A stretch of 64,000 nucleotides of DNA from Salinivirgaceae bacterium (GTDB lineage Bacteria > Bacteroidota > Bacteroidia > Bacteroidales > SZUA-534), in assembly GCA_024405635.1 (NCBI GenBank), contig JAKSOL010000005.1, positions 1 through 64,000 on the forward strand. The letters are read 5' to 3'. Below are positions 7,243 to 25,533 of the stretch, one piece after another (position 1 is the stretch's first letter; each line of letters starts with the position of its first letter). Both the position numbers and the translations under genes were made by a program. Under the pieces are notes generated by a model, which was not told the DNA's origin, made no database searches, and was given only the letters and a program-made list of their open reading frames with translations.

Positions 7243-10206
7243 ATGCAAAAAAAACACATCTCCCATCATATCTTTTTTTTACCAATGCTGATCCTGCTGA
7301 TTATAGCAGAACCAGCATTGGCTCATTTTAACACCGACTCAATAGAAAATTCCTGGGTTGATTCTGTGATGAGTCAAATGAGTTTGCAGCAAAAGGTTGC
7401 TCAACTAATAATGCCAGCCGTTTACTCAAACAAAGACGAAGCATACAACAACAAGACAATTGAACAATTCTGCAAAAATCAATATGGCGGAATTATATAC
7501 ATGCAGGGAGACCCTGTTAATCAAATTCTGCTAAACAATAGGCTACAATCTGCACTAAAAATACCAGCAATGGTAGCTCTAGATGCAGAATATGGGCTTG
7601 GAATGCGACTAAAAGAAACCATTCGATTCCCTCGCAATATGGTTTTAGGAGCCATTCAGGATAATCAATTAATTTTTGATTTTGGAGCTGAACTTGCACG
7701 CCAATGCAAACGAGTTGGCGTTCACATAAACTTTGCACCTGTTATTGACGTAAATGTCAATGCCGAAAATCCAATAATAGGCAGCCGTTCTTACGGCGAA
7801 AATGTTGACTCTGTGGTAACAAAAAGCATTGCTTTCACTCAAGGTTTACAATCGGAACATGTTATGGCCGTGGCAAAACATTTTCCAGGGCATGGCGACA
7901 CCAACACCGACTCGCACCTAGCCACACCTATAATCAGCCACAGCCGTCAGCGACTTGATAGTATTGAACTAACTCCTTTCAGAAAACTGATAAACAACGA
8001 ATTAAACGGCATAATGGTTGCTCACCTAACAGTGCCTGCTCTTGAAGCCGACTCCACTCCCGCAACCTTATCTGCAAGAATATCAGACACTTTACTTCAA
8101 CAGCAACTAGGATTCAATGGGCTTGTGTTTACCGATGGATTAAACATGCGAGGTGTAACTAATCGTTTCAGCCAAAAAGAAATTGGAATTAAAGCTTTAA
8201 ACGCAGGAGCTGATATATTGCTATTTCCTGAAAATGCTGAAAATATGCTAAATGGTATAATTGAATCCATTGAAACTGGCGCAATTGACACCAACATAAT
8301 AAACCAAAAATGCCGCAAAGTTCTTAAAGCCAAATATTGGTTTGGGCTGAATAGTTACACCGAGATTGATACTTGCAATGTTTTATCAGACTTAAATAAC
8401 AATTACGCCAAGCTGTTAAATAGAAGAATAATTGAAAGTGGACTAACTCTAATTCAAAAACAAGATGTTTTACCAATCAAAACGCTAAAAGACAACAAGA
8501 TTCTTTCAATTGCCATTAGCGAAACTGTAACTGCGGAAAACGAATTTCAAAAGCAACTAAGTTTATATGCACAAGTTGACCATATACAAGTCAGTATATT
8601 TGCAACCGATAGTGCAATTGCTAAAATTGTTGACACGGCAAAGCAATACAACACCGTAATTATCTGCACATTAGGCACAAACGAAATTGCAAAAAGCAAT
8701 TACGGACTTGTTCCCGAATCAATAAAGTTGATTGACACGTTGGCAACTTGTTACAATCCCATTTTGGTTCATTTAGGAAATCCTTACGGGTTAGCAAAAC
8801 TTGCCCACTGCAATTTGTTCAAATCGATACTAATTGGTTATAGAGCAGACGAAATAACACAAAACATTGCCGCTCAAGCTGTATTTGGAGGAGTGATTGC
8901 GTGCGGGAAACTACCAGTTAGCATAAACAGCCATCTTAAACTCGGCATGGGAGAAAGCCAAACAACAACACCAATAAGGCTAAAATACACCACTCCCGAC
9001 GAACTAAATCTACCAATACAACCATTTGAAAAAATCGATTCAATAATAAACTGGTGCATAACTAACAATGTTATGCCAGGGTGCCAAATTCTATTGGCTG
9101 CTAAAGGCAATGTTATTTTCCACAAAGCCTACGGTCACCACACATATACCGATAGTACAAAAGTCAAACTAACTGATATATACGACATTGCATCAGTTAC
9201 AAAAGTTGCAGCAACCACAACTGCTCTTATGCAACTATACGATAACAAGCAGTTCTCGCTAAAACAAAAACTTTCAGCTTACGTTCCTGAATTAAAAAAT
9301 TCACAACTGAAAGAGGTTAGAATAAACAGCACAATGGCGCACCAAGCTGGATTAAAAAGCTGGTTACGCCTATACCAAGCCACACTTGACAAGAATGGCA
9401 ACTTACGCCCAGAATTGTTTGCAACACACGACTCTGCCGAATTCAGCATACAGTTAACGCCAAATTTATTTATGCGGAGCGACTATGTTGACACAGCTTT
9501 CTTCCGACTAAAAAACGAGCCATTATCAAACGAAGGCAAATATCGTTACAGCGACATTGGTTTTTATATGCTACCTAAACTTATTGAGAACCAAACAAAA
9601 CTGAAAATAAACGACTACTGCAAACTAAACATTTACGAACCAATGGGAATGAACAACACAAGTTATTTACCATTGCAAAAATTTGACACACTGCGAATTG
9701 TACCTTCAGAGATTGACAACGTTTTCCGAAAAACAGAAATACGAGGATTTGTAAACGATGCAGGAGCTGCTATGGTTGGCGGCATTTCGGGGCATGCTGG
9801 ACTATTTTCAAACGCAAACGACCTTGCAAAACTTGGACAAATGTTACTAAACAACGGGCAATATGCCAACAAACAATACATTAACGCAAGCACAATTAAA
9901 TTATTCACAACAAAAGCATTTGCAAAATCTGAAAATCGTAGAGCCTTAGGCTTTGACAAACCGCTTGAAGTGTATAATATAAATGGACCGACTTGCGAAC
10001 TGGCCTCACAACAAAGTTACGGGCACACAGGATTTACGGGAGCATACCTATGGATAGATCCAAAGAATCAAAGTGTTATGGTATTTGTTACAAATAGGAC
10101 ATACCCCGACCCCAACAACAACAAACTAGCAAAGCTTAATATCAGAACTGATATTCAAGCATTGTTTTACCAAGCATTGCTGCAAAATACAAACGGTTTG
10201 AAATAA
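7243..10206 (+). CDS. GH3 beta-N-acetylhexosaminidase (NagZ-like) fused to a beta-lactamase-like serine hydrolase
   Basis: Signal peptide; KHFPGHGDTNTDSH GH3/NagZ signature; C-terminal SVTK (SxxK), YSD and HTG motifs. Confidence 0.88.
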   Translation: MQKKHISHHIFFLPMLILLIIAEPALAHFNTDSIENSWVDSVMSQMSLQQKVAQLIMPAVYSNKDEAYNNKTIEQFCKNQYGGIIYMQGDPVNQILLNNRLQSALKIPAMVALDAEYGLGMRLKETIRFPRNMVLGAIQDNQLIFDFGAELARQCKRVGVHINFAPVIDVNVNAENPIIGSRSYGENVDSVVTKSIAFTQGLQSEHVMAVAKHFPGHGDTNTDSHLATPIISHSRQRLDSIELTPFRKLINNELNGIMVAHLTVPALEADSTPATLSARISDTLLQQQLGFNGLVFTDGLNMRGVTNRFSQKEIGIKALNAGADILLFPENAENMLNGIIESIETGAIDTNIINQKCRKVLKAKYWFGLNSYTEIDTCNVLSDLNNNYAKLLNRRIIESGLTLIQKQDVLPIKTLKDNKILSIAISETVTAENEFQKQLSLYAQVDHIQVSIFATDSAIAKIVDTAKQYNTVIICTLGTNEIAKSNYGLVPESIKLIDTLATCYNPILVHLGNPYGLAKLAHCNLFKSILIGYRADEITQNIAAQAVFGGVIACGKLPVSINSHLKLGMGESQTTTPIRLKYTTPDELNLPIQPFEKIDSIINWCITNNVMPGCQILLAAKGNVIFHKAYGHHTYTDSTKVKLTDIYDIASVTKVAATTTALMQLYDNKQFSLKQKLSAYVPELKNSQLKEVRINSTMAHQAGLKSWLRLYQATLDKNGNLRPELFATHDSAEFSIQLTPNLFMRSDYVDTAFFRLKNEPLSNEGKYRYSDIGFYMLPKLIENQTKLKINDYCKLNIYEPMGMNNTSYLPLQKFDTLRIVPSEIDNVFRKTEIRGFVNDAGAAMVGGISGHAGLFSNANDLAKLGQMLLNNGQYANKQYINASTIKLFTTKAFAKSENRRALGFDKPLEVYNINGPTCELASQQSYGHTGFTGAYLWIDPKNQSVMVFVTNRTYPDPNNNKLAKLNIRTDIQALFYQALLQNTNGLK

Positions 10207-15282: not shown

Positions 15283-17910
15283 TTAGAATTTTTCAACAGC
15301 ATTCAAATTCCACTCTTGTATATATGCTTTTTTTAGGTTGTTATACCATTTGTCGTTACGAGTATAATCAAGCACTTTTTCGCGAGGGTCGGCATTGGGC
15401 GATTTACGGAAATCGCGACGGGCAAGTGCAATTCCCAATTCGGTTTGACACTCTTTTGCCCACATTGCTTCAAAATAACGGCGATACAACTCATCAAGCA
15501 TTTTGCAAGCATTATCCAACTCGTCGGTTGACGTGTAATAAAGCACTGCACTCACAATTAGTTCGCTGTATTTATTATGAATAACATAGTCAAATGTTGG
15601 TTTGTGTTTTATGCCGAATGAATTGTTACAACTATCGGCAAAGAACGATGTTGCAGCAATATAGGTTTCGAGTGCATCAGCAAATTGTTTTTCTTCGAGC
15701 ATTGGTTGAATTGAATTAACCAGGCGCTGGTATTTGCAAATTGCCGAAATAGCATACGTACGCGCAACAACAACCGAATCGGATAGGTTACACTTGTAGT
15801 TTGCCCTAGCAATAGCCGCTGCTCTTCCTAGCGATTGGCGAGCTTTTAAAAATTCTTTTTGGCGAATAAGACGATCGGCCGAACCTACTTGTATGTTATA
15901 GTCGTACCAAGCTTTGCTGCACTCGCCATCGTTCAACGCCTCAGACAATCGGCGCAAAGCATCAAGAACATCGGGATCTGAAGCAACATCGTTTGTCTCG
16001 GCCACACCTAATGCAAATTGGTATTGTTGTCCGGCCCGGCCCATTTGCAACAAAGCAGCATACGAAACTCCAAACTCGCACAACTGAACAGTGTATGTAA
16101 TAGCAGCGCGCTCGTTTTTCTCAAACCAAAGCGAATCGGGAGTTACTTTGCGACTATTGCTAATTGTTTGTGCCGACTTGTAAAAAGCTAAAGCCTCGCG
16201 TGGCTGATGGGCTTTCATTGCAACATCGCCCTCGTGCATCAAAGCATCGTATTTAATTTGAAAAGCACGAACATACAACTCATCAACTTTTGGCGATGCC
16301 TCAAGTTCCCATTCTGCTTGATATCGAGACGCTTCTGCCAACATTGATATTGCCGTATCAGCAAAATTTTCGTCAAGTTCTTTTGAAACTGCATCTAACA
16401 TTTGGTTGTATTTTTTGGTACGAGTTTCGCGACCTAATTTCTCTAATTCAGCCGAGCATTCAACCGACTTAAACTTGCGACAAATAAAAGTAGCGTGGTC
16501 AAACGCATTCAAAGCGTCGTCGGGTTTGTTGGTAGATAACATTTGTTTTCCTTGCTCAATCCACGCGTTGTAAAGTTTATTGGCCAACTTATCTTCTGCC
16601 GATGAATTGATGTTGTGTTGTGGATACTCGTTACGCAAATGGTTTGCCGAATCAATCATCTGATAGCAGAGTTCGTATTTTTTGTCATTAAAATGAGTTT
16701 GTGCTTGTTCAATTAACCGCGAGTAGATTGTTCCGTACAATTGTCCCGCAAGTTCTTCAAATTCAACAAATTGGCGAATACCTTTAATGTTTTTGCAGTA
16801 ATTTTTGCTTACCTCAAGTAGCGCAAAGCCCTCGTCAACCTTGCGAGCTGATATAAAGCCTTTAATTGAATCGATGTAGGTAAAAATCACTTTTTCAGCC
16901 AAACGAAGGGTGTTGTAACGAGTATCGCTATCGGGATCCATATCGCGAGTGATACGCACACACGAATCGAGCACTTGCGAATAGTTGCGCTTGTTCAAAT
17001 CGAGCAATGATAATTGATAATGAGGTGGCGCATAGTTAAGTTTAACCTCAATTGACTTATTGAACATTTTTACAGCTTCGCTCTCATTGCCCCACTTCAA
17101 CCAATCTAAACCTTTTTGATAATACGCCTCGTACAAGGTTGCTAGTTTTGACTCAATACTTTTTTTAATGGCGCGGTTTTGTTGTTCAGTGCGACTGATA
17201 TGCGAAATCAAATCAACAGGATCTTTTGTTTCGAGATCGAGTTTGCTAGAAAAGCGTTCCGATTTCATTTTATTAAGCACCGACACGTTGTTGATTGTTA
17301 TTTGGCGATACTCATCAAGAGCCTCAACCGAATCGACACGAATGGTTGCAAGTTCTTGTTCCATAAGCAACAAACGAGCATCGGCATTGTAATAATCTTC
17401 AATAATGCTAATGTGTTTGTCAATGTCGCGAACGCCTGATTTGTCGTAATGTAAGGCAAAACTATTGATGCGAATTTTGCAACTTGTACCCACTTCGCCA
17501 ACAATATTTTTGGAAACCAACGTTCCGCCTTTGTAAAATTCGTTATTAGAATCAACGGTTTCGCGAATTTCTTTTCCGTCCGATTTAACAATAGTGTAAT
17601 CGAGGTCAAATACTTGTGGTTCAACAAACTGACTAATATCAAACCCTTTATATTCGCAAGGAGTGTCAAGTTTTAGGTTTCCGTTTTCAATCGTAACATT
17701 CAACTTATTACCTGCACGCGAAATTTTGCTATACAAATTCAGTTTAAAAGTCACGCTTTTAACCCCTATAACTCCCAAATAATCAGCATCATAACCTTCG
17801 ACTGATTTTATTTGCACAGTAACTGGAGTTACCTCTTCAAATAAGGTTTGAGAAACAGCCGATACGACAAACATCAGCGACATCAATATGGCAGAAATGG
17901 TTCTTTTCAT
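15283..17910 (-). CDS. Large secreted/periplasmic TPR-like alpha-helical protein
   Basis: Signal peptide from MKRTISAILMSLMFVVSAVSQ (ATG 17910); beta-rich N-domain then TPR-like repeats (YYQKGL...AVKMFNKSI; WIEQGK...ALNAFDHA). Confidence 0.7.
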   Translation of the reverse strand: MKRTISAILMSLMFVVSAVSQTLFEEVTPVTVQIKSVEGYDADYLGVIGVKSVTFKLNLYSKISRAGNKLNVTIENGNLKLDTPCEYKGFDISQFVEPQVFDLDYTIVKSDGKEIRETVDSNNEFYKGGTLVSKNIVGEVGTSCKIRINSFALHYDKSGVRDIDKHISIIEDYYNADARLLLMEQELATIRVDSVEALDEYRQITINNVSVLNKMKSERFSSKLDLETKDPVDLISHISRTEQQNRAIKKSIESKLATLYEAYYQKGLDWLKWGNESEAVKMFNKSIEVKLNYAPPHYQLSLLDLNKRNYSQVLDSCVRITRDMDPDSDTRYNTLRLAEKVIFTYIDSIKGFISARKVDEGFALLEVSKNYCKNIKGIRQFVEFEELAGQLYGTIYSRLIEQAQTHFNDKKYELCYQMIDSANHLRNEYPQHNINSSAEDKLANKLYNAWIEQGKQMLSTNKPDDALNAFDHATFICRKFKSVECSAELEKLGRETRTKKYNQMLDAVSKELDENFADTAISMLAEASRYQAEWELEASPKVDELYVRAFQIKYDALMHEGDVAMKAHQPREALAFYKSAQTISNSRKVTPDSLWFEKNERAAITYTVQLCEFGVSYAALLQMGRAGQQYQFALGVAETNDVASDPDVLDALRRLSEALNDGECSKAWYDYNIQVGSADRLIRQKEFLKARQSLGRAAAIARANYKCNLSDSVVVARTYAISAICKYQRLVNSIQPMLEEKQFADALETYIAATSFFADSCNNSFGIKHKPTFDYVIHNKYSELIVSAVLYYTSTDELDNACKMLDELYRRYFEAMWAKECQTELGIALARRDFRKSPNADPREKVLDYTRNDKWYNNLKKAYIQEWNLNAVEKF

Positions 17911-18224
17911 TTGTTTACAGAATGTGATATTCGGGTTAAAATTACCCAAAATCAACCTTCAGAAACAGACGATAGCACAAAGGTTTCAACCGCAGAATGT
18001 TGATAGACCTATCGGTGATTAATGGGTTTTAGTGGTTAAGAAATCTTTAATGACCTATAGCCAATTATAACCCAATCAACACATCATTCCAAACAGCCAG
18101 GTAACTATCAGTCACTACTTTATTTGATTAAAAAAGCTTGGTTTTGCCTTCCACTTCAAACAATAGCAAAAGCCGTTAACATCACTCTTATTTTACAATT
18201 ACCTTGGTGGCCCCGCCGCGATGG

Positions 18225-18530: not shown

Positions 18531-19571
18531 TTACTCGTCGATACCTTCAATTGTCTTAATCTTGCCGTTGGCATCAAACTCAAGTTCGCAAACTTTCAAG
18601 CTACGAAGCCATGACTTGCCGCCTGATGGAACTGAGTCGTGATGGAACAAATACCATTTACCTTCGTATTGAATAATAGCGTGGTGAGTTGTCCAACCAA
18701 CAACTGGAGTAAGAATTACACCTTGGTATGTGAATGGGCCATATACGTTGTCGCCAGTAGCATAGCAAAGAAGGTGGCTGTCGCCTGTTGAGTAGGTGAA
18801 GTAATACTTGCCATCTTTTACAAATGTCCAACTTGCCTCAAAGAAACGGTGAGGATCGTCGGCTTTCAATGAGTTGCCGTTTTCGTCAACAACCACAATT
18901 GGGCGTGGAGCCTCAGCGTAGTTCATACCATCTTTGGTTAGGCGTACGCAGCGGCTTGGAAGAGCATCTTGTTTACCCTCTGGCAAGTATGGAGTTTCAA
19001 GATGAATGTTGTCTTTGTAGCGTTGAAGTTGGCCACCCCAAAGTCCACCAAAGTAAACATAAACCTCACCATCGGTTGGGTTTTTAAAAGCGCACATGTC
19101 GATGCTGTATGAACCAGCCATTGGAGCTGCTTGTGGAATGAATGGGCCCTCTGGATTGTCGGCAATTGCAGCGCCCCAGTGGAACACATCGTTGCGGTCT
19201 TTCAATGGGAAGTACATAATGTACTTTTTAACCTTTTTGCTGAAACCCATGCCAGCAGCTTGCTCCTCAGCGTTTGTTGGAACTTCTTGCTCGTACTCTT
19301 GCACGTCGCAGTCCCAAAGCTGACGGCCTGCCCATGGAATATCTTCTTGACGAAGAACGCAACCGCAGTCAACAACCTCACCAGTCATTGGGTCGCCATC
19401 GATGCGGAGCACGTGGTAATCCTTCATAATGTATTGGTCGCCATTGTCGTTCTCAACGTTTGATGCCTCCCAGTCGTGTGAAGGATAGATATAGATTTTG
19501 CCGTTGAAAATATGTACTGAAGGGTCAGCCATGTAGTCGGCAGGGAATAAGTAACGTTTTTTTGTAGCCAT
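18531..19571 (-). CDS. GH43 beta-xylosidase/alpha-arabinofuranosidase (GH43_1-like), cytoplasmic
   Basis: YMADPSVH, YIYPSHD, SYSID, FGGLWGGQLQ, RFFEASW, YSTGDSH, WTTHH; no signal peptide. Confidence 0.9.
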   Translation of the reverse strand: MATKKRYLFPADYMADPSVHIFNGKIYIYPSHDWEASNVENDNGDQYIMKDYHVLRIDGDPMTGEVVDCGCVLRQEDIPWAGRQLWDCDVQEYEQEVPTNAEEQAAGMGFSKKVKKYIMYFPLKDRNDVFHWGAAIADNPEGPFIPQAAPMAGSYSIDMCAFKNPTDGEVYVYFGGLWGGQLQRYKDNIHLETPYLPEGKQDALPSRCVRLTKDGMNYAEAPRPIVVVDENGNSLKADDPHRFFEASWTFVKDGKYYFTYSTGDSHLLCYATGDNVYGPFTYQGVILTPVVGWTTHHAIIQYEGKWYLFHHDSVPSGGKSWLRSLKVCELEFDANGKIKTIEGIDE

Positions 19572-19595: not shown

Positions 19596-20792
19596 TTATT
19601 TTTCAGTCTTTCTCAAATCAATAAGTTTCTGAATGGTACGCTTAGGATGACTATTGCGGTCAAAAAGTGTAGCATAGTCGCTGCGACCACGAATTGGGAA
19701 GTCGTTTCGCCAAGAATTTGCATCGTTGAAACACCAGAAAGAAACACGGTTAACGGTCTCTTTGTGAGTAAGAAGCATTTTGTAGAAACCAATCCAAAAA
19801 TCGTCAAACTGAGTTTGAACCGAGTCAGGAAGCGCATCTTTGTAAGGATCCATCTCTGGGCGATATTTGAATTTATCGCCATCGGCAATGTTAGCGCCAG
19901 AAAAACCGTAAGGGTTTGGTAACATCGAAAGGTCAAGTTCCGAAAATGCAGCGTTTACACCCAATTCTTTAATGCAGTTGATTGAATGGTCGTACTGATT
20001 GATGATAACATCAGCACCATCTTCAAGAATTATGTGACCTTGCATGCCAATTGCGCTCACCTTCATGCCGCCATCGATAAGTGGTTTGAAGAATTTGCAA
20101 ACAGCCTCAACCTTGGTTGCCTTGTTCATCGAAAAGTCGTTGTAGAACAAATCGATTGTAGAGTCGGCATCATAAGCACATTTAAATGCCCATGGAATAA
20201 ATTCCTCGCCCATAATTTGATAGAAGAAGCTGTTGCGGAAACTGCCATCGTCTTCAAATGCCTCGTTTACAACGTCCCAAGCGTCAACTCTACCCTTAAA
20301 GTGGTTTACAACTGTGGTAATGTGCTCTTTCATGCGGACCTTTAGTGTATCGGCCGATACAAGATTGCCGTCTTGGTCGTGATGAAACCACCAAGGGCAT
20401 TGCGAGTGCCAAATAAGGCAGTGCCCCATTACCTTCATGCCAGCCGCTTTGGCCTTATCAACAAACTCGTCGGCAAGGGTAAAGTCGTAGCGGTTTTGTT
20501 CGGGATGGATAACCTCGCTCTTCATGCAGTTTTCGGCCACCACCCAGTTAAAGGTGTTGGTAATCTTTTCCCAGTTGGTAGTTTGGTCGGCCGATACCAT
20601 TCCGGTATAGTTGCGACCATCGGCCATCTTGCTATCGGCGGCCACCTCCCACTGGTTTACACTGCAACCAGTGTACCAGCAATCGGCGTATGCCTCGGCA
20701 AGAGAGGTTGTTTCTGAAGAACTATTACCACCACTACAAGAGGCCAACATTGCCACTGCAGGGAGTACAAGCAATAAAGTCTTACTCTTCAT
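19596..20792 (-). CDS. GH10 endo-1,4-beta-xylanase, lipoprotein
   Basis: Lipobox LASC; AENCMK, GHCLIWHSQ, WDVVNE (acid/base), YNDF, IGMQGH, SELD (nucleophile). Confidence 0.93.
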   Translation of the reverse strand: MKSKTLLLVLPAVAMLASCSGGNSSSETTSLAEAYADCWYTGCSVNQWEVAADSKMADGRNYTGMVSADQTTNWEKITNTFNWVVAENCMKSEVIHPEQNRYDFTLADEFVDKAKAAGMKVMGHCLIWHSQCPWWFHHDQDGNLVSADTLKVRMKEHITTVVNHFKGRVDAWDVVNEAFEDDGSFRNSFFYQIMGEEFIPWAFKCAYDADSTIDLFYNDFSMNKATKVEAVCKFFKPLIDGGMKVSAIGMQGHIILEDGADVIINQYDHSINCIKELGVNAAFSELDLSMLPNPYGFSGANIADGDKFKYRPEMDPYKDALPDSVQTQFDDFWIGFYKMLLTHKETVNRVSFWCFNDANSWRNDFPIRGRSDYATLFDRNSHPKRTIQKLIDLRKTEK

Positions 20793-20798
20793 AAGTAA

Positions 20799-22205
20799 TT
20801 ATTTCTTGTTACGAGCCTCAATCTCCATGTTCATTTCGTCAAGTTTCTCATCGGTAAGAGGATACTTATAGATAAGGAAACCAACAACGATAAGAAGAAT
20901 GGCAGGAATAATGGTAGTGAACCAAAGAATAGCCTCTTTAGCAGTTGCTGAGTATTCGGCAAGGTTTGGATAGTAAGCATTTACTGGTGCACTGATAAAC
21001 GATGCCAAGAACACTGTGATGAAGATAAGAATCATCAATTGCAAGCATTTGTTTGCTGCAAATTCTTTGAACATATCGCTGTACGAAACTGGTTTTTCTG
21101 GTGTGGTTGCAATGCGCTCTTTGCATCCTTTGAAGCAATAGAACAAAAGAACAAAACCAACAATTGCAAAGATTGATGTTACTGTAAACCATGCTTTTGG
21201 CGCAGTTGGAAGAGCTGAAGCCTCGCTTGCAAGGTTGAAACCTACCCAACCCATTACAAGTGGAGTGATAAATCCAGCCAAAGAGAAGCCTGCCTTAAAT
21301 GCAACACCAGCAAGTGCGTTAACTGTTGCAGCAGGACGGTTGCCTGTACGATATTCTGCCTCGGTAATTACCTCTGGAACCAATGCCCACATAAGCGAAC
21401 CTACCAAAAGGCCAACGCCTGTCATAACTTTTGCACTTTGAACCAATACGTTTAGTTCGGCTACATTAAAGAATTTGCCAATAACGTAAAGAATTGCAAA
21501 ACCTACAAAACCGATAGAAAGAAGCAAGTAATAAAGTCCTTTTTTGCCAAACATTCTCTTCAATGCTGGTAGCGAAGGAAGAATGATGAAAGCAGGAATG
21601 GTACCAATAGCCATAAACAAAGCTTGGTTCCAGTTAACTGACTCGCTGATAACAAGTGCCAAACCGATAGGGAAACCTGCTTGAACAATGATTTGACCAA
21701 TGTTTGCGCAAACCATACGAGTTGAAGTAAGTTTTAGAACCTCGTCGTTGTCGCGGGTCATACTAGCCATAATAGAACCGTAAGGAATGTTTACTACTGA
21801 GTAAATCATACTCAATACGGTGTAGCTAACTGTTGCATAAACAATTTTTGCGGTGTAGCTCCATTCTGCAGCTTGAGGAAGCATAAGCAAACATGCTGCA
21901 ACAGTCAATGGAATACCACCATAAAGAAGATAAGAACGATATTTTCCAAGTTTTGGATTGCTGTTGTCGATGTATCGACCTACGACAGGACTCCATACAC
22001 AGTCGATAAGACGTACGGTAAGAATAAGTCCACCAACAAAAGCTGGATTAATTTTCAATACTGTAGTTAAATACAACATTAAGTAGCAAGCTACTGTTTG
22101 GAAAATAAGGTTTTGAGCAAGGTCACCAGAACCGTAACCTATGCGTTGGGCCCAACTAAGTTTGTAGAAGCCATTTGCCTCTTCGGCTTTGTTTACTGAA
22201 TTCAT
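20799..22205 (-). CDS. GPH-family MFS xylo-oligosaccharide transporter with apparently permuted helix order
   Basis: GYGSGDLAQNL, GKYRSY, NIPYGS, TSTRM, EAEYRTGNR motifs; 12 hydrophobic segments; co-oriented with GH10/GH43. Confidence 0.9.
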   Translation of the reverse strand: MNSVNKAEEANGFYKLSWAQRIGYGSGDLAQNLIFQTVACYLMLYLTTVLKINPAFVGGLILTVRLIDCVWSPVVGRYIDNSNPKLGKYRSYLLYGGIPLTVAACLLMLPQAAEWSYTAKIVYATVSYTVLSMIYSVVNIPYGSIMASMTRDNDEVLKLTSTRMVCANIGQIIVQAGFPIGLALVISESVNWNQALFMAIGTIPAFIILPSLPALKRMFGKKGLYYLLLSIGFVGFAILYVIGKFFNVAELNVLVQSAKVMTGVGLLVGSLMWALVPEVITEAEYRTGNRPAATVNALAGVAFKAGFSLAGFITPLVMGWVGFNLASEASALPTAPKAWFTVTSIFAIVGFVLLFYCFKGCKERIATTPEKPVSYSDMFKEFAANKCLQLMILIFITVFLASFISAPVNAYYPNLAEYSATAKEAILWFTTIIPAILLIVVGFLIYKYPLTDEKLDEMNMEIEARNKK

Positions 22206-22570
22206 ATAAATTGGTTTTAATTAATTAATTTTTACTCAAAAGCTCATTATTCTCCCATACAAAAACGCATTCGGCTTCTTTTTGAAAAAAACTGAGAATT
22301 GCTTGTTACAGAAAAACAAAGGGCCTTTTTGTTAAAATGGTTATACTACTGCAAATAGAATGTATTATTTTGATAAAAGCAACACACAATGTCGATTTAT
22401 ATGGCACACAAAAAGCTTATCAATTGCAAAAAACTCATATCCATCGGCTTACCCTAAATTCTAATCGTAGTCCTTTATCAAGCACTTACCACTTCCCCAA
22501 ATGGCATTCAATCGATTATCAAAAGATTTGTAAATTAGCGGCACAAAAATCAATCTCAAAAAACATATTT

Positions 22571-23230
22571 ATGAAAAGATTATTAATGATTTCAGCAGCG
22601 CTTATTATGACATTTTCGTCGTTTGCGCAATTTCCACTTGGCTTTAACTATGGTGTTAAAGCCGGTTTTGGCATAAAGGGTATTGAGGCTAGTAGCCCAT
22701 TCATTGCAAGTGATGCTACAGAACAACTCAGTTTACATGCTGGTGCTTGGGCTCGTGCTCATGTGTTGTTTTTGTTTGTTCAACCCGAAATTTACTACGA
22801 GTACCGCGATGCTTCGTTTGATGTGTACTCAGTTGTTGATGGCAAAGTAACAAGCAACATTGAAAGCACAAAGGTTAAAAGCAACCAAATAAGCATTCCT
22901 GTTCTTTTTGGTTCTTCGTTTGGGCCTTCGCGCATTTATGCAGGCCCAGTTTACACTCGCACTCTAAAAAACAACGAAGGTTGCATGGAAAAATGGCCTA
23001 GCGAGAATATTGAATTCATTCCAAAAGAAAACACTTGGGGCGCTCAAATCGGTTTAGGTTTTGACATTTTCCGCTTGAGTGTTGATGCTCGCTACGAGTT
23101 AAACCGAAATAACACAACCCGTAAAATTGAAGATGGAATAGGTGCTATCTCAGGAAAACCTATTTATAAAAAATCGTACATTGACACAAAAGCCAACTAC
23201 TTTACAATAAGTCTTGCTTGGGAATTGTAA
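22571..23230 (+). CDS. Outer-membrane beta-barrel (porin family, 8-stranded type)
   Basis: Start moved to ATG 22571 (MKRLLMISAALIMTFSSFAQ signal); YGVKAG, FVQPEIYY, IPVLFG, VDARYE, C-terminal ISLAWEL. Confidence 0.8.
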   Translation: MKRLLMISAALIMTFSSFAQFPLGFNYGVKAGFGIKGIEASSPFIASDATEQLSLHAGAWARAHVLFLFVQPEIYYEYRDASFDVYSVVDGKVTSNIESTKVKSNQISIPVLFGSSFGPSRIYAGPVYTRTLKNNEGCMEKWPSENIEFIPKENTWGAQIGLGFDIFRLSVDARYELNRNNTTRKIEDGIGAISGKPIYKKSYIDTKANYFTISLAWEL

Positions 23231-23358: not shown

Positions 23359-25533
23359 CTATTGCTTAACCAATTGTTTACTTACTACACCTGCCTGTGT
23401 TTCAATAACCAAAGTGTAAATTCCTTTGCGCAAGTGCTCAACCGAATATTGGTTATCGGCCATTTGGTGTAGATTTTCAACCGAGCCGTTTGAGTTTATT
23501 ACCGAAACGTTAAGAGACTCAGCTCCTTTAATGTTTACAACCGAAGTTGTGGGATTTGGATAAACAACCACATCAATTTGCTCGTCAATTGCATTTTCAA
23601 CCTCAACTGCCACAACATCAAAACTAGTGGTTGTGCCGTTGTAGTCGGTTTGCGAAAGGCGGAAATAAACGGTGCCTTGTGGCAAGGTGCTTACAGCAAC
23701 CGAGGTTGAATATTCGTTTGCTAGTTGAGTAGTGCCAGCGCCTGCTACTATTTTAGCCTCGTACCAAATTTCAACGTTGGTTGAATATTCAATGGTAAAG
23801 TAGTCGTTGTTCAACTCCGATGCAGTTTCCCACTCAAATACAATGGTATTGTCGTCTTGTTGAGCCGAGAAATAAACCAATTCTATTGGAAGCGCCACTG
23901 ATATTTGTCGGATAATTTCGGCTATAACCTCCTCATTCATAGGTTTGCCATTGTATTGATTTTGGATTTCTTTAATTGCCTCTTTTGCAGTACTAGTACC
24001 ACCAGCCCATTCTGCTAAATTATTCCAAAATCCAGTAGTTATTGTCGGCATTTCATAATTATTAGTTCCCAAAACAATATTCGCATTTTCCTTCATTTTA
24101 AAACTGATGTTAGTAATTGACCCAGTAATCAACGTTCTTTCAACATCCAACCCCCAATCTGGATGATAAGTGTCTAAATCTTCCACCTCGTCAGTATAAG
24201 TTCCTGACACAATCAAATTTCCCTTTCCTCCATTTTGAGATTTTATATATGCCGTTTCTCCTCCATTCAAATTGCCACGAACCTCAACATTTGACACTTT
24301 ACCTGAATTGTTATTATAATACAATTTTGAGCCATTGTTTAATGTTAAATTGCCACCTTCAAGACTTCCATCTGCTGCATACGAACCAATACGCATTATA
24401 CCACCATTCATGTTGATTGTAGCATTATTGTTATTGGTAACATCACCTGCCACTTTTAGGTTTCCTTCTATTGTAGCGGTACCATTATTAACAAAGTCAC
24501 CAGGTATATCTAAATCAACTCCTTCACCAATAGTAAAAGTGGAACCATTAGTAAAATCATCGGCAACTGCTATCGTGGTGTTATTACCAAATGTTCCGCC
24601 TGTTGTTTTAAGGCTACCTGCCGATGTTATGTTTGAGCCTGTGCCAACGGTCAATCTTGCAAGTGTCAAATCTCCTGCAGTGGACGATATGGTTGCATTA
24701 TTTCCCATAGTAATCGCACCTGTAGCATTAGCACTAGATGCTGTTATTGTTGCTCCACTGCCTGCCATTTTCAAACTTCCAGTGTTTGATAATTTTCCGT
24801 CAACTATAAGACTTGCATTATCGCCCGAAAATGTTGTTGTAGCTCCATTTGTAAAATTACCAGATGCTGTAACTCGTCCACCACTTACATTTAATGTACC
24901 ATTGGTTGTTATATCTGTTCCTTGCATCCCGTCGCCTACAGTAACGGTTCCTGATGTGGAAATTGTTCCTCGTGAAGTTAACGCACCTGATACTGTTGTT
25001 TTACTAGTGCCTCCTGTAATCGAAATAGATTCTGCACTCACGTTTCCATTTGACACTTCAAGCGTTTTACTATTTGTCAACACTCCCGATACAATTAAGT
25101 TTCCTCCCGATATAGTAGCATTACCACTATTAGTAAAAGATTCTGCATTCAATCCTGTTGAAGAACTAAATGTTCCTTTATTTTCATAAGTTCCACCAAC
25201 ATCAATTTTTCCTGAGATATTATTAGTACCATTATTAGTAACAGAACCCGTTACTATTAAATTTCCTTTAACATTAAGTGTCTGATTATTATTGATAGTC
25301 AAATTGCCATTTATAGTTACGGTTACCCCTGCAGGAATTGTTATGGTGCTATTTTTAGTTTGGGGGATAATTCCTGTAGTTCTATAAGTTGAAACTACAA
25401 CATCCTCTGATATAACACCCTCGCCTATTGATACGTTGCTTCCACTCCAAGTTGTTGCACCCAATGCCATACTACTAACCATAACTAGTATGCTTGCAAC
25501 AAACAATTTATATAAATAGCTTTTCATCCTCAT
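23359..25533 (-). CDS. T9SS cargo protein with Gly/Thr/Asn-rich beta-solenoid region
   Basis: Signal peptide; recurring G(N/D)(F/V/L)TNxG-like motif; LPIELVYFSA...WETASELNNDYF domain; VYPNP...GIYTL...KQLVKQ CTD. Confidence 0.8.
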   Translation of the reverse strand: MRMKSYLYKLFVASILVMVSSMALGATTWSGSNVSIGEGVISEDVVVSTYRTTGIIPQTKNSTITIPAGVTVTINGNLTINNNQTLNVKGNLIVTGSVTNNGTNNISGKIDVGGTYENKGTFSSSTGLNAESFTNSGNATISGGNLIVSGVLTNSKTLEVSNGNVSAESISITGGTSKTTVSGALTSRGTISTSGTVTVGDGMQGTDITTNGTLNVSGGRVTASGNFTNGATTTFSGDNASLIVDGKLSNTGSLKMAGSGATITASSANATGAITMGNNATISSTAGDLTLARLTVGTGSNITSAGSLKTTGGTFGNNTTIAVADDFTNGSTFTIGEGVDLDIPGDFVNNGTATIEGNLKVAGDVTNNNNATINMNGGIMRIGSYAADGSLEGGNLTLNNGSKLYYNNNSGKVSNVEVRGNLNGGETAYIKSQNGGKGNLIVSGTYTDEVEDLDTYHPDWGLDVERTLITGSITNISFKMKENANIVLGTNNYEMPTITTGFWNNLAEWAGGTSTAKEAIKEIQNQYNGKPMNEEVIAEIIRQISVALPIELVYFSAQQDDNTIVFEWETASELNNDYFTIEYSTNVEIWYEAKIVAGAGTTQLANEYSTSVAVSTLPQGTVYFRLSQTDYNGTTTSFDVVAVEVENAIDEQIDVVVYPNPTTSVVNIKGAESLNVSVINSNGSVENLHQMADNQYSVEHLRKGIYTLVIETQAGVVSKQLVKQ

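Follow-up and report, generated by a model that had tools for sequence, protein, structure and literature searches.

The locus described here raises the question of whether the transmembrane helices (TM) of a sugar transporter belonging to the major facilitator superfamily (MFS) can follow each other along the polypeptide in an order other than the canonical one. The MFS is the largest family of secondary carriers, and its mechanism is explained by a fixed connectivity, in which a single cytoplasmic link connects one six-helix bundle to the other. The gene in question (20799..22205, minus strand, as are all parts of it given below) lies in a 64,000-nucleotide stretch, positions 1 to 64,000 of contig JAKSOL010000005.1 of a Salinivirgaceae bacterium (assembly GCA_024405635.1), which we refer to as the window. 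The host is a herbivore-gut Bacteroidales bacterium, and the locus is of the xylan type. A preliminary description of the window assigned the product to the glycoside-pentoside-hexuronide (GPH) transporters and proposed the helix order TM1-5, TM8-11, TM6-7, TM12. Here we corroborate this order and go beyond that description to a whole clade of permuted proteins, copies in fungi, and canonical-order relatives that are about 80% identical.

The open reading frame (ORF) is intact, starts with ATG and encodes 468 amino acids followed by a stop codon; the peptides quoted in the preliminary description occur at the residues given there. The product matches PF13347 (MFS_2; 204.1 bits, cut-off 27) and TIGR00792 (231.6 bits, cut-off 231.35), in each case in four separate stretches. 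When MFS_2 was run on the DNA, residues 23-179 matched profile positions 1-155, residues 193-355 matched 260-414, and residues 313-412 matched 154-250. GPH transporters are recognized by a basic TM2-TM3 loop, a K-E-R signature after TM6, the P.L.K..GKK motif in loop 8-9 and the EY.TG.R motif in loop 10-11. All of these are present in the window protein, line up opposite UidB and the canonical consensus, and show little or no variation across 100 permuted sequences (G87, K88, Y89, R90, E363, K221, E284, R290 and K304).

To establish the canonical order, 150 representatives of 50%-identity clusters were fetched, 87 of which have 400-560 residues. Within this set, 82 ascend along Escherichia coli UidB, 71 of them with over 400 UidB residues aligned in one stretch; the exceptions are P0121, P0123, P0129, P0135 and P0153. 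The 71 single-stretch representatives, together with UidB, make up a canonical profile of 458 positions. Helices were numbered by the hydropathy peaks of UidB and MelB; in UidB, peaks 6 and 7 fall within residues 184-247, peaks 8-11 within 263-392, and peak 12 at 408-424, and profile positions 186-262, 274-405 and 398-454 were therefore assigned to helices 6-7, 8-11 and 12, respectively. The window protein departs from this N-to-C order.

Comparison with the canonical profile divides the window protein into four blocks, and segment-wise Smith-Waterman alignment to UidB yields the same division; each segment outscored all of its 200 composition-preserving shuffles. Block A (residues 5-182; 21660..22193) corresponds to TM1-TM5 (profile 2-177, 224 bits; residues 15-169 aligned to UidB 4-157, z 39.5; MelB 3-140). 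It is followed by block B (residues 195-330; 21216..21623), which contains the P.L.K..GKK and EY.TG.R loops and corresponds to TM8-TM11 (profile 274-405, 78 bits; residues 200-323 aligned to UidB 275-391, z 11.8; MelB 281-396, z 6.5). Block C (residues 336-412; 20970..21200) comprises the displaced TM6, the cytoplasmic loop and TM7 (profile 186-262, 55 bits; Pfam profile 154-250; residues 343-412 aligned to UidB 186-254, z 9.0). Block D (residues 413-468; 20802..20969) consists of TM12 and the cytoplasmic tail; here the canonical profile 398-454 matches residues 411-468 (31 bits), and residues 432-467 align to UidB 411-446 (z 11.1).

When the blocks were rearranged in silico into six orders, only A-C-B-D produced one end-to-end match (410.5 bits; residues 5-468 to profile 2-454). 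Matches to the native order and to four control orders broke into three or four pieces. An hhalign comparison of 100 permuted with 91 canonical sequences aligned 372 columns at 47% identity and left two reciprocal gaps of block size, in which canonical TM6-7 lies opposite the junction 189/190 and query positions ~328-417 lie opposite the canonical TM11-TM12 loop. Accordingly, MFS_2 covers canonical relatives in one stretch (4/4, profile 1-427) and permuted relatives in two or three (5/5). Since all profile and pairwise tests agree, we conclude from these sequence comparisons that the predicted helix order TM1-5, TM8-11, TM6-7, TM12 is correct. The change is a non-circular permutation, with the TM6-loop-TM7 segment re-inserted in the TM11-TM12 loop.

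This order is not confined to one genome. With each species represented by a single genome, relatives are encoded in 584 of 600 candidate stretches. The best 80 loci were kept, and all of them align colinearly with residues 1-468 of the query, with identities of 77-91%; two of the 80 are truncated at contig ends. These loci come from metagenome-assembled genomes (MAGs) of cattle, buffalo, yak, sheep, goat, deer, reindeer and horse and include a cultured isolate, Prevotellaceae bacterium MN60. Likewise, the best 120 protein clusters listed (NCBI, JGI, ENA and Logan), among them WP_028911091.1 of Prevotella sp. MA2016, are all 82-95% identical to the query over 98-100% of its length. Within the family of the window genome, 16 of 33 genomes contain the split pattern in a single frame of about 472 residues, namely 15 of 16 in one genus plus the window genome itself. 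An even sample of the order yielded the pattern in 8/401 genomes (5/236 genera), and the permuted order was also detected in relatives of only 31-36% identity.

Independent sequence data support the three junctions, denoted J1, J2 and J3 in chain order. A contig in run X3 (record 11, 21008-21722) bridges J1 and J2, and one in run X2 (record 1, 20700-21254) bridges J3; the two runs belong to a study other than the probable source of the window. J1 is also bridged by contigs X2 record 5 and X6 record 15, and among the contigs that bridge it is one of a metatranscriptomic library from a third study. Contigs of some runs end within the gene. Contigs from an RNA library cover parts of it, a weak hint of functionality. 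Among 77 orthologues, all with intact frames, the proportion of nonsynonymous differences (pN) is 0.132 against a saturated proportion of synonymous differences (pS) of 0.759; by block, pN is 0.106 in A, 0.118 in B and 0.161 in the moved block, so that constraint on the latter is just slightly lower, and the three linkers are the most variable (0.19-0.32). The block swap is natural rather than a product of misassembly, and the transporter is under purifying selection.

Among 415 fetched proteins of at least 400 residues, 274 are permuted and 138 canonical, and three contain TM6-7 twice. The permuted proteins comprise the clade of the window protein; a Prevotella/Bacteroidaceae group that is about 45% identical to it; and, nested in the latter, a group including named proteins of the anaerobic gut fungi Piromyces sp. 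E2, P. finnis, Neocallimastix californiae and Anaeromyces robustus, encoded on scaffolds of 26-201 kb. In the tree, named fungal proteins make up 3 of the 13 rows of this third clade, the remainder being from short contigs, and the Atlas cluster adjoining the query is labeled "Eukaryota 50%, commonest Chytridiomycota". Sugar transporters are reported to be enriched among bacterial transfers to Piromyces sp. E2 (10.1101/514042), and the part of that paper considered here does not mention the GPH family. The permuted transporters are thus more than one gene: they form a conserved, selected and horizontally spread clade.

The closest canonical-order relatives belong to a Prevotella group that includes P0370 (126 contigs), P0373 and P0360, with 47 clusters at least 60% identical to P0370. 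Unlike the window protein, these proteins match the Pfam profile in one stretch and show the canonical helix order; their identity is 46-47% to the window protein and reaches 79.5% to permuted members of the Prevotella/fungal branch. The latter value is that of canonical P0360 and permuted P0326 over 440 profile positions, and by block the identity is 92.3% (A), 81.8% (moved block), 72.6% (B) and 66.1% (D). Their loci share the glycoside hydrolase (GH) context of the permuted genes, with a GH10 gene adjacent in 6/10 and a GH43 gene in 3/10 of those examined. Both orders occur within one genus (canonical in genome G389, permuted in G168 and G287), and one genome of the window's family (G025, contigs C64 and C87) holds a gene of each kind.

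The window protein has 12 hydropathy peaks. With both termini predicted to be cytoplasmic, lysine and arginine together account for 27 of 158 residues in cytoplasmic loops vs 5 of 84 in periplasmic ones. Because of this distribution, which follows the positive-inside rule, the three new joints are placed on the periplasmic side and every helix therefore keeps its canonical orientation, in agreement with the preliminary description. J1 (residues 183-194; 21624..21659; ALVISESVNWNQ) joins the end of TM5 directly to TM8 by a loop of six residues (186-191) according to DSSP analysis of an AlphaFold2 model. In the same analysis, J2 (residues 321-335; 21201..21245) is a periplasmic linker of 15 residues leading from TM11 to TM6, and J3 (residues 410-419; 20949..20978) is a periplasmic linker leading from TM7 to TM12. 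Linker lengths are nearly fixed among 100 aligned permuted sequences (J1, 6-7 residues in 94; J2, 15-16 in 88; J3, 10-11 in 95), and the junction sequences of the window clade and the other permuted groups are alike.

The AlphaFold2 model, built with an alignment of 100 permuted sequences, contains 12 long helices and is confident overall (mean predicted local distance difference test score, pLDDT, 86.4; predicted TM-score 0.83), the displaced TM6 reaching pLDDT 95-97. Covariation was measured by mutual information with product correction (MIp). The top 50, 100 and 200 pairs linking the moved block to the rest in 137 canonical sequences have mean percentiles of 0.619, 0.628 and 0.594 in 271 permuted ones, compared with ~0.50 in a partner-shuffle null (of 1000 shuffles, 2, 0 and 0, respectively, attained the observed values). 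A control with unmoved blocks gave an equal enrichment (0.629, 0.619 and 0.583). Given that P0360 and P0326 are 79.5% identical, their packing interfaces consist of essentially the same residues, and because of the near-identity of the blocks and the retained covariation we infer, indirectly, that the moved block keeps its canonical neighbors. The helices would thus be expected at their canonical places in the usual two-bundle MFS fold, as far as can be judged from sequence and model: an N-terminal bundle of helices 1-5 and helix 10 of the chain, and a C-terminal bundle of helices 6-9, 11 and 12. The bundles would be tied three times rather than once, by periplasmic tethers of 6 and 15 residues in addition to the retained cytoplasmic loop, and the rewired transporter would work by alternating access, which the two periplasmic tethers may influence, as the preliminary description proposed.

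As to function, the transporter gene lies 6 nt upstream of a gene for a GH10 endoxylanase-like protein (19596..20792, minus strand; PF00331, 253.7 bits), which is followed after another 24 nt by a GH43 gene (18531..19571, minus strand; PF04616, 44.8 bits), so that the operon context proposed in the preliminary description stands. Judged by eye, the N-terminus of the GH10 protein resembles a lipoprotein signal (…LASC) and no signal peptide is evident in GH43; a reading by eye also revealed no evident Bacteroidetes-type promoter motif upstream of the transporter gene. Across the best 80 orthologous loci, the genes downstream are GH10 plus GH43 in 31, GH43 only in 27, GH10 only in 4 and neither in 14, the other 4 loci having one or both genes in another arrangement; GH10 and/or GH43 occur within the flank at 66/80 loci, at 62 of them downstream on the same strand. 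The transporter is the sole strong MFS_2 gene of its genome (2.66 Mb in 36 contigs, 99.8% complete).

The nearest canonical branches in every tree are a Leuconostoc 'xyloside transporter XynT' (P0132), an MFS transporter of Levilactobacillus brevis (P0142) and a protein of a Dysgonamonadaceae MAG (P0127). The window clade is placed inside the clade of the Leuconostoc XynT cluster, and the proteins of L. brevis and Dysgonamonadaceae lie alongside it (supports 97-99 / 93-96). These three proteins, whose association with xylan or xylosides is taken from their source names, share with the window protein the family, the motifs, the length and 12 helices, and are 42-47% identical to it over matched or aligned positions; they differ in that the canonical xyloside transporters match MFS_2 in one stretch (profile 1-427), whereas in the window protein TM6-7 lies behind TM11. 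The biochemistry of the related XylP was reportedly described by Heuberger in 2001.

Because the gene sits in a tight operon with GH10 and GH43 and its nearest named relatives are xyloside transporters, we assign it as a xylo-oligosaccharide or xyloside:cation symporter, the substrate and the coupling ion, a cation, both being predictions. In the proposed scheme, the GH10 enzyme would produce short xylo-oligosaccharides, which the transporter would most likely import and hand over to a cytoplasmic GH43. According to the parts of the literature consulted, the xylan polysaccharide utilization locus of Bacteroides ovatus has an MFS transporter next to GH10 and Prevotella bryantii has an XynD-XynA-XynB arrangement (PMC8002723), and an MFS transporter of an uncultured Bacteroides imports xylo-oligosaccharides up to xylotetraose (PMC13543919). 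The transporter-GH10-GH43 operon corresponds to the inner-membrane step that is conserved in xylan use by Bacteroidales. Our favored reading, to which we give a probability of roughly 0.78, is that the gene encodes a functional inner-membrane GPH sugar:cation symporter of the XylP/XynT-like xyloside branch, which has the usual two-bundle fold with rewired loops and imports short xylo-oligosaccharides.

Four other explanations have to be set against this reading, two of which would deprive the helix order itself of meaning. The window comes from a draft genome of 36 contigs, and the public run that matches the DNA best may stem from the source sample, so a misassembled or chimeric contig in one genome could in principle mimic a block swap. 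The recurrence of the same order in all of the best 80 loci of other species, in 16/33 genomes of the family and 8/401 of the order, in 120/120 listed clusters and in relatives of down to 31-36% identity, together with the contigs of another study that bridge all three junctions, makes such an artefact wholly implausible. No more credible is the view of a colinear but divergent protein whose off-diagonal matches reflect the internal pseudo-symmetry of the MFS (TM6 resembling TM12, and the N half the C half). This view draws on a HMMER match of residues 237-357 to MelB 305-431, in which the TM6-like helix lies opposite MelB TM12, and on the single colinear BLAST alignment to UidB that can be forced. 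The forced alignment, however, is almost devoid of identities over its middle 240 residues (190-430), and no colinear end-to-end alignment to canonical GPH proteins was found. The off-diagonal segments score 78, 55 and 31 bits with z of 9-12, one re-ordering alone restores a single 410-bit match, the hhalign gaps are reciprocal, and canonical relatives of 79.5% identity carry the block, itself 81.8% identical, at its canonical place.

The other two explanations accept the order and differ on what it means. The helices might be placed by chain order or packed in some new way, so that the protein would be a different object in space; the three-dimensional arrangement is itself a prediction, and the six-residue J1 tether suits neighboring helices under either scheme. 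We regard this fold variant as unlikely, considering the 66-92% identity of the blocks to canonical-order relatives, because of which the interface residues are conserved, the covariation retained between blocks as it is between unmoved ones, the family motifs kept in each helix and the confidence of the model. Less probable still is a decaying or non-transporting relic, such as a sensor, or a pseudogene that persists in the operon without harm. Permuted members are known as sequences only and TIGR00792 is passed marginally, but the intact frames and low pN in 77 orthologues, the lack of another strong MFS_2 gene in a 99.8% complete genome, the conserved position with GH10/GH43, and the spread and diversification in anaerobic fungi all speak for a working transporter.

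Several observations weigh against the symporter reading. The preliminary description had predicted off-diagonal alignment blocks against both MelB and canonical GPH transporters; these were found against UidB and the canonical profile, whereas in MelB, which alone in the family has solved structures, the TM8-11 block appears and neither the moved block (block C, z -0.4) nor the TM12 segment (block D, z 0.5) is detectable by sequence on its own, so that MelB alone gives no permutation signal. The excess over the TIGR00792 cut-off is just 0.25 bits. J2 is the least confident part of the model (pLDDT ~62 at residues 321-330). Covariation shows a modest effect, with the permuted sequences amounting to an effective 26; owing to that small effective size, the reverse comparison (top permuted pairs in the canonical set) lacks significance, both for the moved block and for the controls.

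MelB (PDB 4M64, 7L17 and 8T60) is homologous to the window protein over TM1-5 (58 bits) and TM8-11, the only two segments significant by Smith-Waterman; it has the canonical order, and its identity to the window protein is about 29% in the N-terminal part only. The permuted-clade profile skips from MelB residue ~198 to ~280, its positions 207-354 corresponding to MelB 280-427. The window protein is expected to share the alternating-access mechanism of MelB. The residues of the MelB Na+ site, under what we take to be their numbering, are perhaps not all conserved in the window protein.

How the permuted order arose was examined with trees built without the moved block. Under LG+G4 in IQ-TREE, the canonical Prevotella group is basal to the permuted Prevotella/fungal clade (99/98, 98/94) and the window clade groups with the long-branched Leuconostoc XynT, which implies two changes. 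Under a mixture model, the canonical group and the permuted lineages form one unresolved set with the window clade as sister (97/93); three changes are required on this tree and two to four in the bootstraps, a single change occurring in 0/200 bootstrap trees. Monophyly of the permuted proteins is not rejected in approximately unbiased (AU) tests (p 0.177 with LG+G4; p 0.292 with the mixture model), and a tree of the moved block alone has too few columns to discriminate. The equal linker lengths and the shared junction motif favor a common origin. The history may have comprised one origin, two origins, or an origin and a reversal, and we leave the choice among these undecided. A "reversion to canonical order" suggested by a FastTree tree has been withdrawn, that tree having been driven by three mosaic sequences.

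A plausible route to the permutation is tandem duplication of TM6-11 followed by two deletions, as in the duplication/deletion model for soluble proteins. Three proteins of 561-565 residues (P0291, P0393 and P0394) have 14 helices, since one copy of TM6-7 occupies the canonical place and another, 72-74% identical to it, follows TM11. We considered them as duplication intermediates and rejected this interpretation, as each is a mosaic whose N-terminal part is canonical and whose C-terminal part is permuted. In P0291, TM1-11 is 90-93% identical to canonical proteins, and the second copy with TM12 is 99-100% identical to permuted P0337; P0393 and P0394 share their N-terminal part (98-99%) and differ in the C-terminal one. 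Each is a singleton found on one or two short ENA contigs, and no 14-helix form was detected in the 33 and 401 species genomes or at 80 metagenome loci (83 ORFs, all canonical). They are probably recombinants or assembly chimeras of co-occurring canonical and permuted genes and are therefore unusable as evidence on the route of rearrangement, although it is evident from them that the two gene types, when crossing over within the conserved TM11 region, give rise to a 14-helix product.

A more far-reaching scenario can be put forward only tentatively, the odds being somewhat against it. The connectivity of the MFS fold would be labile over evolution in this lineage, and the TM6-loop-TM7 hairpin would be a movable module that moved at least twice in one xyloside-transporter clade (by two independent relocations, or by a relocation and a reversal), leaving pairs about 80% identical that differ in helix order only and serve the same operon. 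Anaerobic gut fungi would subsequently have acquired the rewired form from rumen Bacteroidales and diversified it.

Other length variants were observed in the GPH relatives. P0212 and P0265 have an insert of about 280 residues exactly in the TM5-TM6 loop, and P0262 has one of about 100 residues in the same loop; in P0260 and P0186, profile positions ~281-315 (the TM8/9 region) are covered twice. The metagenome contig L178:46-1908 encodes a canonical-order relative of 621 residues with a hydrophilic, non-membrane insert of about 120 residues in the TM11-TM12 loop, where TM6-7 is lodged in the permuted proteins. The breakpoint loops of the permutation seem to be general insertion hot spots in GPH proteins.

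Beyond the operon, the window contains several other genes. Directly downstream of the GH43 gene, an ORF of 890 residues (15283-17955, minus strand) matches no Pfam family at E <= 1e-5 and has a faint NCBIfam match resembling lipoproteins with tetratricopeptide repeats (19.8 bits). Divergent from the transporter gene is an ORF for a small beta-barrel of the OMP_b-brl_2 type (22337-23230), and farther on is a gene (23359-25533, minus strand) for a protein of 724 residues with repeats rich in G, T, N and S and a C-terminal sorting domain of the type IX secretion system; this is a secreted or surface protein to which no function is assigned. On the plus strand, an ORF of 987 residues (7243-10206) fuses a GH3 part (NagZ-like beta-N-acetylhexosaminidase) to a serine hydrolase domain of the beta-lactamase fold resembling penicillin-binding protein 4B (PBP4B); every NCBIfam match is under its cut-off, and a role of the product in cell-wall recycling is probable.

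The searched literature, which largely excludes subscription journals and supplements, yielded no account of an MFS or GPH transporter with permuted helices. In the portions consulted, the stem 'permut' is absent from a 2021 Chemical Reviews article on MFS structure (PMC8154325) and from a 2026 review of bacterial glycoside transporters (PMC13543919), where all glycoside MFS/GPH transporters are said to share a 12-helix topology, and in PMC9952236 'circular permutation' occurs in unrelated reference entries only. Deviations described in the consulted part of the 2021 article are transporters of 14 helices, with two extra ones between the bundles (PepTSt), and ENT1 with 11 (PMC8154325). Like the window protein, these leave the 12-helix canon, and they keep the two-bundle core, as the window protein is predicted to do; they change the number of helices and keep the order, whereas the window protein keeps the number and changes the order. 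Work on split and 'mix-and-match' MFS proteins (by Bibi and Kaback in 1990, and by Madej and Kaback in 2013) is said to indicate that helices assemble without native connectivity. Those cases are engineered splits or conceptual re-orderings of repeats; the window protein is a natural re-ordering in one polypeptide.

The permuted protein is a member of the GPH family by descent that lacks an implicit defining feature of the family, colinear helix order, and the MFS fold tolerates a natural, widespread and selected non-circular permutation of a two-helix block. For annotation, this means that domain searches split permuted proteins into several partial MFS_2 matches and that colinear alignments or trees including them are wrong in the middle third. 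Because the canonical-order relatives of about 80% identity share the operon context, matched natural pairs are available, and these bear on the role of loop connectivity and inter-bundle tethers in folding, in insertion order and in the rocker-switch cycle, and on how a helix that is normally inserted sixth copes as the tenth. In abundant xylan degraders of the rumen and hindgut, the permuted transporter is a candidate for a main inner-membrane sugar importer.

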